Assembly (NCBI GenBank): GCA_963665115.1
Contig: OY762007.1
Location: 1,536,001-1,600,000 of the forward strand
Reading direction: 5' to 3'
Source: an uncultured Rivularia sp.
Lineage (GTDB): Bacteria > Cyanobacteriota > Cyanobacteriia > Cyanobacteriales > Nostocaceae
Length of the DNA stretch: 64,000 nt
A model generated the notes under the pieces. The model did not search any database. It was not told the origin of the DNA and worked only from the letters and a program-made list of their open reading frames with translations. Position numbers and translations under genes: made by a program. Below, one piece after another: positions 46,887-50,124 of the stretch. How positions within the stretch are numbered: position 1 is the stretch's first letter; every line of letters begins with the position of its first letter.

Positions 46887-48056
46887 CTAATGAAATGGGC
46901 ATTTATCAACGCTTTTTATACTGTTCCAAGGGTCAGGTTGAGGAAATAAATTAGGTTTCAAAATCGTATTTTCAAATTCTGTATGAAACACTTTGGTTGC
47001 CGAACCTGAAAGTGGTGGGACAATTACACCCCAATCAGCAGGAACTGTTCGACCTTGATTTGCTTCGCGATCGCAATGTTTCATAAATTGTTTGGAGGCT
47101 GTATGATGGTCAACTATTGAAACACCATTTATGGCAAATGAATGTAGTACTGCTGCGTTCAATTCAATTAATGCCTTGTCTTTCCATAAAGATAATTTTG
47201 AACGGGTATTTAATCCCAATTTCTCCCCAATTACTGGCAGCAAGTTGTAGCGGTAATCATCGCCAAAATTGCGGGAAGCTATTTCTGTACTCATATACCA
47301 ACCGTTGAATGGTGAGGCTGAATATGAGATTCCACCTATTTCTAAACGGTGATTTGAAACAGAAGGTAAAGCGTGCCATTTCAAACCTAATTCTGCAAAC
47401 CAAGGTAATTCAGGATGGGTAATAGGAACTTCTAAAACTATTTCTTTGGGAATATTAAACAGCTGCGGATTTTCTCCTGGCATTTGAATAATTAATGGCA
47501 AAATATCGAAGCGGGTTCCAATTCCATTCCACCCCAATTTCTGACATATTTTCGTTAATTCAATTTGTGCGGGGTCGCCAATAATTGTACCATCTGGAAG
47601 TGAATAACCTGCATAGCGAATTAATAAAGGATTCCAAATTCTTATACCAGGTTCTCCAGGTTTATCGGGAGCGAAAATGGAAATCATTGATAATATTTTG
47701 CCATTATTTGTTGCTAACTTAATATGCTCTACAATTGCCTCAAATATTTCTGAGGCTGTAGATAAATGCCTTAAATCGCGAACAATTAATGTGTTCCAGA
47801 AAATTCTTCCAATACAGCGCGTGCTGTTTCGCCAAGCTAGTTGTGCCCCATAATTAATTTCTTTTGGGGTTTGCCAGTATGTTCCCGTTTTTTGAACTTC
47901 GTCACATATTTCGGCGAGCCGCTTTTCTAATTTTACTATTGGTATATTTCGTTCCGTATAGAATAATTTAAGGAATTCCGTTGCTTCGGAAACAATCAGG
48001 TTTTCATTCAACTTTAATTTTTCGATTATTTCCATTTGTTGACTGGATAAACGCAT
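46887..48056 (-). CDS. nos: Bacterial nitric oxide synthase oxygenase
   Basis: Heme-ligand motif AWRNSTRCIGR, RIWN..LIRYAGY, PFNGWYMSTEI, IVDHHTA, VPPLSGS. Confidence 0.95.
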   Translation of the reverse strand: MRLSSQQMEIIEKLKLNENLIVSEATEFLKLFYTERNIPIVKLEKRLAEICDEVQKTGTYWQTPKEINYGAQLAWRNSTRCIGRIFWNTLIVRDLRHLSTASEIFEAIVEHIKLATNNGKILSMISIFAPDKPGEPGIRIWNPLLIRYAGYSLPDGTIIGDPAQIELTKICQKLGWNGIGTRFDILPLIIQMPGENPQLFNIPKEIVLEVPITHPELPWFAELGLKWHALPSVSNHRLEIGGISYSASPFNGWYMSTEIASRNFGDDYRYNLLPVIGEKLGLNTRSKLSLWKDKALIELNAAVLHSFAINGVSIVDHHTASKQFMKHCDREANQGRTVPADWGVIVPPLSGSATKVFHTEFENTILKPNLFPQPDPWNSIKSVDKCPFH

Positions 48057-48263
48057 AACTTTATCTGTAAATTATCTATTTTCTGAAGGTTATAAGAAAA
48101 GTATTTAGTAATTCAAAATAGAACTTAGAGCTTCACAGGTAATTATCGAGACCTTTGGGTCTAAAACCCCACCTACAAGAAGGCATACTAGTAATTGGTT
48201 AGGGTAAAATACCACCACCAATTACCTCTCCCTCTCTCCCTCACTCCCTCACTCTCTCCCTCT

Positions 48264-49827
48264 TTATTTCCGCTCTTCAGTATCACTTGATGTATTCAAA
48301 GCAGCGATTTTAGATCTATCTATTACTTGAGAATTGTTCAAATCATCTTCTAAGTTTGTACCAAACGAATTACGAGGTTCTTTGAGAAAAAACGCGCACA
48401 AACTTGCACAAATCAATGCAGTTATACCCATCGTATTGAATAAAGCTCGGGTATTACTGAAGTTGTAAACAGTCAAAAAAACTACACCACCGACATTTCC
48501 ATAAGCACCTACGTTACCCGCAATTTGTCCGGTAATTTCTTTTTTTATCAAAGGAACTATGCTAAACGTGGCACCAGCAGCAGCTTGAACGAAGTAAGCA
48601 CAAAATATAGTTGCCATCGTAGCACCTACAACTGTCCAATTTGTATCTATTGCTGCCATCAGTAGATAACCGATGCCAATTCCCACCGTCATCCCTGTCA
48701 TTACCCACTTACGGCTTCCCAATCTATCGGAAATTAATCCACCACTTGGACGAGAAATTAAGTTTAAAAATGGAAAGCTAGCTGCAACAAAACCAGCTTG
48801 AACAATATTTAAATCAAAGGTTTGGGCAAAAAAACTTGGTAATACAGAAATTACCGCAATTTGCGAACCAAAGTTAGTCACATAGGTCAAACTTAGCAAA
48901 GCAATCTGTCGAAACTCGTAGCGTTCTGAGGGTGCAAAGGTTTGTTGACTTTTTAAAAAATCTTCTGCACCAGGATTCAAAGAAACCAATCAATTCTCTA
49001 TTTACTTGCCAAGATTTGTATAGCTGAAATAAATATAATGCAGTTACTGCGATCCAAATAAAAATAACTTGGCTTTCATTCAGAAATTGAATAGAATCTG
49101 AATGCAAAGGAAGTGATAGCAATCCTAAAGACAACAATAATCCCAAATCCATCAGAGTCATTGCAAAAAAACTTCTGCGACTCGTAACTTGCATTGCTCC
49201 GCTACGTTGGGGACGGCGAAATTCTTTTCCGGGTGGTGTGTCTTGAACGTTAAACCAATAGAAAACACCGTAAACCGCACAAACGATACTAATAATACAT
49301 ATTGAAAATCGCCAGTTAACGCTTCCTACTGTGAATGTAGCTGTTGCGACTCCTAACAATGGTAATAACAATTGGGATGCAGCAGCACCGAAATTACCCC
49401 AACCACCATATATTCCTTGAGCAATACCAATTTCTGATGGTGGAAACCATTCCGCTATCATTCGCACTCCAACAACAAAACCCGCACCCATCACACCCAT
49501 CGTCAGACTGCTGTAAACAAGCTGGTCAAAATTAGTTGCAAATCCAGTCATGAAACAGGGAATCATTGCAAATATCAGCACTCCAGCAAAAGTAATTCGC
49601 GCTCCCCAACGGTCTAAAATTATGCCGATTATTATTCTTGCTGGTATCGTCAACGCTAGATTGCAAATCGCAAGAGTTTTCATTTGTTCCGATGTCAAGC
49701 CCAAATCATTTTGAATGGCGATCGCAAATGGTGCAAAGCTAAACCAAACTAAAAATGACAAAAAAAAGGCTATCCAAGTTAAATGTAAAATTTTATTCTT
49801 TAATGAGAGTGAGAATATGCTAGACAT
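48264..49827 (-). CDS. nrtP: NarK/NrtP-family MFS nitrate/nitrite transporter; split by a +1 base near 48983-48985
   Basis: ILHLTWIAFFLSFLVWF, GIYGGWGNFG, SRPSGGLISD, GQIAGNVGAYGNVG. Confidence 0.85.
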
Positions 49828-50110
49828 AATATTTCTTGATAACCCTAATTTGTATAAAAACTAGCCACTAAATAAATTCTTGTATGGAGAATTAGGTAAA
49901 AAAAGGGTTTTCCTATCTTCCATAAGAGGGCTGTATCATTTCCGGTTTTAAAACACTTGCATTCATTTGATTGAGGTGATGCTTATAATGTTTTACTTGG
50001 ATTAAATTATTTCTTAAAGCTTGATTGCTCCTTTCGCTTATTCACAGCAATACCCACCTCAAACTTAAAACAACAAATACATTTTGCTAAATTATTTCCA
50101 AAAATAAAAT

Positions 50111-50124
50111 TAGACTTTAGTCTA
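50111..50124 (-). promoter_or_regulatory. Perfect-arm operator candidate upstream of the transporter-NOS pair
   Basis: The minus strand reads AAAAAAAC-TAGACTAAAGTCTA-ATTTT, the same context as 42200 and 35625. Confidence 0.6.

Follow-up and report, generated by a model that had tools for sequence, protein, structure and literature searches.

The window analysed here, 64,000 nucleotides from the genome of an uncultured Rivularia sp. (assembly GCA_963665115.1, contig OY762007.1, positions 1,536,001 to 1,600,000), carries a gene for a stand-alone nitric oxide (NO) synthase (NOS) and, upstream of it in the same orientation, a gene for a NarK/NrtP-family transporter, both beside a locus for a contractile injection system (CIS). 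The conserved unit is the NOS together with the transporter, and not the NOS together with the CIS. We give an even chance to the reading that the two genes constitute a module, co-inherited in many cyanobacteria without a CIS, that serves NO release and nitrite/nitrate clearance and is possibly co-induced with the CIS in the present lineage. A literature search covering few subscription papers found, outside the supplementary tables of PMC6104048 and PMC8894136, no description of a NOS-NrtP/NarK pair; the module is apparently undescribed, its component families being known.

The NO synthase and its partner transporter

The NOS gene (46887-48056, minus strand) encodes 389 residues and was assigned by its Pfam match and by alignment to the solved NOS structures 2flq and 3e7s. 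The NO_synthase domain (PF02898) spans residues 19-378 (E 3.5e-161; 536.6 bits versus a Pfam cut-off of 22.7) and is the sole domain of the open reading frame (ORF). The absence of a fused globin or diflavin reductase sets the protein apart from syNOS and bears out the first-pass annotation, made from the sequence alone, of a stand-alone enzyme. It is the only NOS in the genome, a single contig of 8.69 Mb. The heme ligand Cys81 and the arginine-binding Glu258 are kept, and the substrate site contains the bacterial-type Asn263. The Val/Ile switch is occupied by a mammal-like Val233, as opposed to the Ile of bacterial 2flq (Ile is typical of bacterial NOS, though not strictly defining). Val at this position is tied to efficient NO release in the available text of PMC6104048 and PMC9500659. 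From these residues, arginine-dependent NO formation is likely, and a dN/dS of 0.16-0.24 against three relatives indicates purifying selection.

The transporter gene (48264-49827, minus strand) was identified by TIGR00886, by alignment to NarK and by its position in the tree. Its placement, with the NOS co-oriented behind it and the CIS alongside, is as first described, except that one extra base near 48983, missed at that time, splits the gene into two overlapping ORFs (48874-49827 and 48264-48989). The two halves contain the diagnostic residues and score 195.5 and 146.6 bits with TIGR00886, and the intact orthologue of G021, through which the alignment to NarK was made, scores 337 bits (cut-off 311.7). 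G021, G007 and G003 are close relatives that, like the window's genome (G000), have the pair in the CIS locus. Of four runs compared, X2, X3 and X4 have contigs without the extra base, and X1 has both forms at about equal depth. In addition, a test of 100 conserved genes in the assembly flagged splits in 15, among them nirA and the second nrtP (one of the 15 looks like a tandem paralogue). In view of these contigs and of the frequency of split genes, the transporter is probably intact and the split an assembly error, a mixed population being the alternative; a programmed frameshift was rejected, since the relatives and contigs are in frame. Purifying selection is again evident (dN/dS 0.11-0.15).

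Both conserved Arg residues, the Tyr of transmembrane helix 7 (TM7), the Phe-Gly pair and the nitrate signature GGWGNFG are present in the NOS-linked transporter, and nitrate/nitrite transport is the likely activity of this NarK-type protein. In the NOS-linked transporters, FGSQ replaces FGSE, such that the TM7 Glu becomes Gln, and an 11-residue loop insertion is common to the clade. The transporter thus has neither the nirA-nrtP-narB operon context nor the TM7 FGSE of an assimilatory NrtP. A nirA-nrtP-narB-narM operon, with its own nrtP copy, is located at about 3.07 Mb, about 1.5 Mb from the pair, in agreement with the earlier statement that no nitrate reductase gene is nearby.

The pair might instead be a decaying relic in this lineage, which we consider very improbable. 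A frameshift interrupts the NOS in the G007 and G003 assemblies, and another the transporter in these two genomes and in G000. Run X8 carries the NOS insertion at full depth, so that this frameshift may be real and the NOS may be in the process of being lost in some strains, a result that speaks against a working module; in X1, about half of the depth carries the insertion in the transporter. However, these are single +1 insertions in base runs, the affected copies contain no internal stops, dN/dS is low, splits affect about 15% of conserved genes in the assembly, and both genes are in frame in the X2 and X3 contigs.

Among the 389 family genomes surveyed, 91 have NOS matches, whose frame lengths are about 1480 residues (syNOS-like), about 1200 residues (reductase-first) and about 390 residues (stand-alone). 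Stand-alone NOS was counted in 25 genomes (two of them split), and the flanks were examined for all 24 others. A NarK-type gene adjoins the stand-alone NOS, directly or across one small gene, in 14 of the 25 (the G194 copy is shortened), and the pair also occurs in records titled Microcoleus and Leptolyngbya. In quick tree searches without bootstrap, the pair-linked NOS sequences fall within one clade of 20 rows (SH-aLRT 97; 44 rows in the tree), 18 of which have Val at the Val/Ile switch, with Val-Ile/Val-Val variants in G387 and G058. Eight NOS-linked transporters likewise form a single clade (SH-aLRT 100; 17 rows in the tree), apart from the nirA/narB-linked copies and divided into the two subgroups also seen in the NOS tree.

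TM7 and gene neighbours were surveyed in the best 80 of 551 NrtP loci. All 12 NOS-adjacent loci have Gln, and 61 of the 62 loci beside nirA/narB have Glu (the motif was not read in the other one). Gln occurs in none of the six loci with neither neighbour, and in none of the 68 non-NOS loci overall. A second, nirA/narB-linked nrtP copy was found in seven of eight pair-bearing genomes (10 genomes searched), as well as in the window's genome. Two points count against the reading as a module: 11 of the 25 stand-alone NOS genes, including those of the same-genus G015 and G022, have no adjoining transporter, and the TM7 Gln state arose once, so that the 12 NOS-adjacent loci represent one evolutionary event rather than 12. 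A metagenome scan yielded 66 NOS loci, most of them from distant relatives, of which one has a transporter and none the operator described below or CIS structural genes.

Several additional features were recorded around NOS genes in the family. A GAF-only protein is encoded between transporter and NOS in seven family genomes (L047:7321-7866; L030, L031, L048, L049, L052, L053) and in L242. It was tried as a nitrate sensor, but gave only a weak GAF_NLP match and is not used as support here; its confidently predicted fold (pLDDT 91) best resembles N-terminal domains of plant MYC/EGL3 and generic GAF domains, with no NreA among the matches listed. An Ile-type stand-alone NOS occurs in six genomes (L041, L044, L045, L046, L050, L054) within a conserved cluster of seven genes (reductase, NOS, epimerase, desaturase, class III aminotransferase, cyclase and GNAT), possibly an NO-using biosynthetic cluster. 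The NOS of about 1200 residues (L055:6900-10493, L056:9488-13063, L057:9569-13186) represents a third cyanobacterial architecture, with EF-hand, 2Fe-2S, FAD and NAD domains at the N-terminus (Pfam; L055 and L056); the L056 enzyme is encoded near an AAA ATPase 49% like that of the CIS. Finally, a Piwi-domain (Argonaute) gene and a PD-(D/E)XK nuclease lie upstream of the pair in G194 and G195 (L038:3282-6610, L042:3764-6939).

The CIS locus and its operator

Positions 81-46570 form the only CIS locus of the genome, according to tblastn. The locus codes for tubes, sheath, Pvc16, a VgrG-like spike, gp25, baseplate J, an AAA ATPase, a DUF4157 protein (the extracellular CIS, or eCIS, core), a histidine kinase, a NarL/LuxR-type regulator and several Ser/Thr kinases. 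The histidine kinase (with a GAF-like sensor, as a lead only) and the response regulator are adjacent on the plus strand (8911-10769, the regulator at 9987-10769). In the 389 genomes, the regulator is matched in 214 and baseplate J in 234, and the two lists of genomes are largely the same.

A palindromic operator, TAGACT-nn-AGTCTA, marks this locus. The genome contains two perfect copies, where base composition predicts 0.97, and both belong to this locus. One (42200-42213) lies between the DUF4157 gene and the gene at 41154-42170, which is divergent from it; a TATAAT follows 35 bases away on the side of the eCIS core, and the site is conserved in other genera. The other (50111-50124) could act in either direction, being situated between the transporter, whose start is 284 bp away, and a divergent pair of Ser/Thr kinases (50435-53108, plus strand), whose start is 324 bp away; the perfect operator reported some 285 bp upstream of the pair is thereby confirmed. 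A copy with one mismatch (35625-35638) precedes ORF 35693-36430. A two-mismatch variant (8142-8155) precedes the Pvc16-sheath-tube operon; of 11 regulator loci from other genomes, 10 have this 14-mer, identical in all its letters, in front of their Pvc16-sheath operon. Two weaker copies (15711-15755) lie before the tube-VgrG-baseplate operon.

The operator is a real CIS motif, conserved across genera. A matrix derived from 23 sites in other genomes places the 50111 site first genome-wide and five of the top seven sites inside the window. The flanked version of the operator occurs at 19 places in 13 of the 389 genomes, with no control matches, and 17 of these places (12 of the 13 genomes) adjoin CIS accessory genes. 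At eCIS-core-type genes, a minus-10 hexamer lies 34-36 bases downstream of the operator in all 14 training sites, which are homologous and hence not independent. Short-spaced inverted repeats of this kind fit NarL-family regulators, and the regulator at 9987-10769 is the likely binder, as judged from the sequences. The literature search, with few subscription papers covered, found no description of this operator or of its candidate regulator.

Across the family, the operator precedes structural operons of the CIS as well as candidate cargo genes (8142, 15711-15755, 35625 and 42200; L113-L127), arguably a finding more general than the NOS pair itself. Four ORFs (35693-36430, 36707-38149, 41154-42170 and 42616-43521) share an N-terminal segment of 50-70 residues (34-42% identity), a candidate cargo-loading signal; ORF 35693-36430 gave only a weak nuclease lead. 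Before the latter, 35296-35520 repeats the C-terminus of the AAA ATPase with 92% identity, and the recurrence of similar fragments in relatives suggests that cargo slots were duplicated in tandem. Outside the window, operator sites with high scores have no CIS genes nearby, the fourth-best (L291:15724, G000:C1:8149723) being situated between convergent genes, about 290 bp before a 65-residue ORF. The far end of the window (53256-59686 and 60765-61373) contains a permease-fragment-like ORF of 67 residues without a Pfam match, ORFs of GDSL and glycosyltransferase type that are split, and a DUF4277 piece; assembly errors may account for several of the splits.

The pair lies inside the CIS locus, together with the operator, in four genomes only (G000, G007, G003 and G021). 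The first-pass annotation had proposed to check the synteny of NOS and NarK with CIS loci across cyanobacteria and had named a linkage unique to this strain as a refuting outcome; with the linkage confined to one small clade, that outcome has largely come about. All four genomes, which represent two different gene orders, have an operator copy at the pair's 5' end. In G021, which is 100% complete, NOS comes first and the operator is 136 bp before the pair; NOS and transporter are intact, and the regulator and two perfect operators are present, with no sheath or baseplate match. G021 also keeps Pvc16 genes and the eCIS core (L025, L026), and the regulon may persist longer than the machine itself. 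The machine is present in G007 and G003, in whose assemblies the NOS is frameshifted. In the other 10 pair-bearing family genomes, the operator is lacking throughout (3-5 mismatches at best within 500 bp upstream), and the examined flanks, some as short as 6-14 kb, contain no CIS structural genes. In the complete genome G403, NOS, sheath and baseplate are megabases apart. The pairs of G145 and G195, about 36-40 kb from CIS-like genes, have no operator and were not counted as linked. The best reading is that the pair is lodged in the CIS accessory region of one small lineage and is not needed for the CIS.

This distribution also bears on the proposal that NO has a working role in the CIS programme, its synthesis during assembly being the signal for cell death, defence or differentiation. 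In favour of the proposal are the top score of the operator at the pair's 5' end, the recurrence of that position in both gene orders and, according to the available text of PMC8894136, the connection of the Anabaena CIS with stress-induced ghost cells. For the signalling role itself, however, as put forward in the first-pass annotation, nothing was found beyond adjacency to the CIS, and the proposal is quite improbable. Baseplate J is far more widespread than the linkage, eight of 11 same-genus relatives with the regulator have no NOS match (three of the eight being only 83-84% complete), G021 has the pair without sheath or baseplate match, and the genome contains no H-NOX. The NOS is also unlikely to be CIS cargo, since sequence comparison shows it to be without the N-terminal segment that ORFs 35693, 36707 and 41154 have in common with the DUF4157 protein. 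Building a CIS does not require NO. The single globin match in the genome is a HAMP-cyclase-globin fusion (L296:3581-5305), a candidate O2/NO sensor.

Targets of operator 50111 and fate of the NO

Co-induction of the pair with the CIS is plausible because the operator is the conserved CIS motif and is present at the 5' end of the pair in four of four genomes; we regard it as evenly poised. The regulatory element of the earlier claim stood, in that the operator is real and so positioned, whereas the lack of an operator in all 10 other pairs and the lack of sheath and baseplate matches in G021 weigh against it. That operator 50111 acts on the pair, alone or in both directions, is again a balanced proposition. 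Its transporter-side flank resembles the flank of 35625 that faces ORF 35693 (p<0.001 in G003, 0.017 in G000 and 0.017-0.025 in G007; measured against 1500 AT-rich genomic stretches, with 81 comparisons made). The transporter side is also the more conserved (123-138 of 150 bases, compared with 88-98 of 150 on the kinase side), and G007 and G003 each have their single mismatch in the kinase-side half of the operator; at 35625 and 8142 it is the gene-side half that is perfect. Two X4 biofilm contigs match the upstream DNA of the transporter as far as 50131-50132 and then diverge.

Other observations point away from the pair or favour neither side. The directional matrix, which oriented all 14 training sites, is negative both ways at 50111 (-26.6 toward the kinases, -21.8 toward the transporter). 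On the kinase side, three of three genomes have a TAnnnT hexamer at +25; toward the transporter, TAnnnT at matching spacing occurs in G003 only (+36). In G021, the best minus-10 elements of both operators point away from the pair, that of the NOS-side operator toward the eCIS core. A sigma-70 scan found eight sites, compared with an expected 13.6, and none of the eight lies upstream of the transporter on the minus strand. The flanks had initially been described as oriented toward the pair, which their similarity and conservation support and the matrix and mixed minus-10 evidence do not.

It is a real possibility, at less than even chance, that 50111 serves only the kinases, or is the leftover of a duplicated promoter, and that the pair is a bystander with its own regulation in a rearrangement-prone accessory region. 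The kept hexamer toward the kinases would be consistent with such an arrangement, as would the G021 kinases, which have a complete operator and minus-10 promoter of the eCIS-core type (matrix score +44), and the operator-free pairs elsewhere in the family. Gene order is moreover shuffled among close relatives, and X4 contains a joint of 43551 to 48143. On the other hand, the kinases of all five other relatives have no operator, the kinase-side spacer is full of large indels, and flank similarity and half-site conservation favour the transporter. The nearly equal operator-kinase distances in G000 and G021 (324 and about 328 bp) were dismissed as coincidence, as G003 and G007 differ by indels.

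As for the function of the module, oxygenase-only NOS receive electrons from general carriers such as ferredoxin or flavodoxin. The NOS, fed in this way, would release NO from arginine, and in an oxygen-evolving cell the NO would be oxidised to nitrite and nitrate. Release rather than retention is favoured because of Val233. The paired porter would then move nitrite/nitrate out of the cell; export or exchange rather than uptake is suggested by the TM7 change from Glu to Gln and by the separate uptake copy in the nirA-narB operon. From pathway knowledge, such clearance would keep nitrite/nitrate from disturbing nitrogen control in a nitrogen fixer. In the present lineage, the module would have come to lie at the accessory end of the CIS locus, where gene order is shuffled, and the regulator of the locus may have taken it over, the NarL-type protein activating the pair through operator 50111. 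Two considerations temper the proposed direction of transport. The role assigned to the TM7 residue comes from alignment, and direction is not readable from sequence, since the mechanisms of NarK and NarU differ through small changes elsewhere in the sequence (available text of PMC12667767).

The same components would also allow nitrogen salvage, in which arginine (e.g., from cyanophycin) is converted via NO to nitrate/nitrite that the transporter retains or retakes for NarB and NirA. Globin-fused syNOS passes arginine nitrogen to nitrate (available text of PMC6104048), the genome contains nirA-nrtP-narB, and a globin gene adjoins the NOS in one clade member, G058. Salvage nevertheless appears fairly unlikely here: the pair includes no globin and the single globin of the genome is fused to a cyclase; Val233 favours release, as cited above; the transporter has no NtcA-like site upstream in the window's genome (two of 13 other pair loci have one); and an uptake copy already exists. 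A broader proposal, rather unlikely in our estimation, would have the two-component system run the whole CIS locus through the previously unreported operator, one lineage having wired in the complete NO module, with the NO-releasing NOS and a re-purposed nitrite/nitrate exporter. A burst of NO would then accompany CIS induction and act in cell death or defence, and this would be the first case in which NO synthesis by bacteria is connected with a contractile injection system.

Significance and comparison with known systems

Oxygenase-only NOS has been listed in cyanobacteria without an assigned role, and a co-inherited, diverged NarK-type partner makes the fate of the NO nitrogen directly testable. 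The natural TM7 Glu-to-Gln variant offers a probe of how the NarK family sets direction and coupling, and the conserved operator, with its candidate regulator, makes CIS induction in filamentous cyanobacteria testable. If the NO module does sit under the operator, the regulon would have captured it recently, and NO could thereby be tied to stress-induced cell death. The literature search found no NOS-CIS link among the matches listed.

Like the oxygenase-only NOS of Bacillus and Geobacillus (2flq), the window NOS consists of a single oxygenase domain, with the heme Cys, the substrate Glu and the substrate-site Asn and without a reductase, and differs from them in having Val instead of Ile at the NO-release position and a NarK-family partner gene. 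Oxygenase-only NOS in cyanobacteria (cluster I, Correa-Aragunde 2018) is already recorded in the available text of PMC6104048. The syNOS of Synechococcus PCC 7335, which combines globin, oxygenase and reductase, is likewise a cyanobacterial NOS tied to nitrate as end product, and family members of syNOS length show 43-45% identity to the window NOS. The latter, in contrast, has neither globin nor reductase and belongs to a separate branch of the tree, its link to nitrate being through the transporter gene. That transporter is similar to cyanobacterial NrtP and Escherichia coli NarK in its TIGR00886 match and in the Arg, TM7 Tyr, Phe-Gly and GGWGNFG elements. It is distinguished from both by its own clade, by Gln in place of the TM7 Glu, by the 11-residue insertion and by its never being found beside nirA/narB in the 12 NOS-adjacent loci among the best 80 of 551.

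The CIS of the window shares genes for sheath, tubes, VgrG-like spike, baseplate, AAA ATPase and DUF4157 protein with the thylakoid-anchored CIS of Anabaena PCC 7120 and with other eCIS. The thylakoid-anchored CIS is characterized in the available text of PMC8894136 by a Cis13 transmembrane helix, a Cis12 extension and a Cis19 crown. The main text of that paper uses none of the words "regulator", "kinase" and "nitric" and describes neither the operator nor a NOS.

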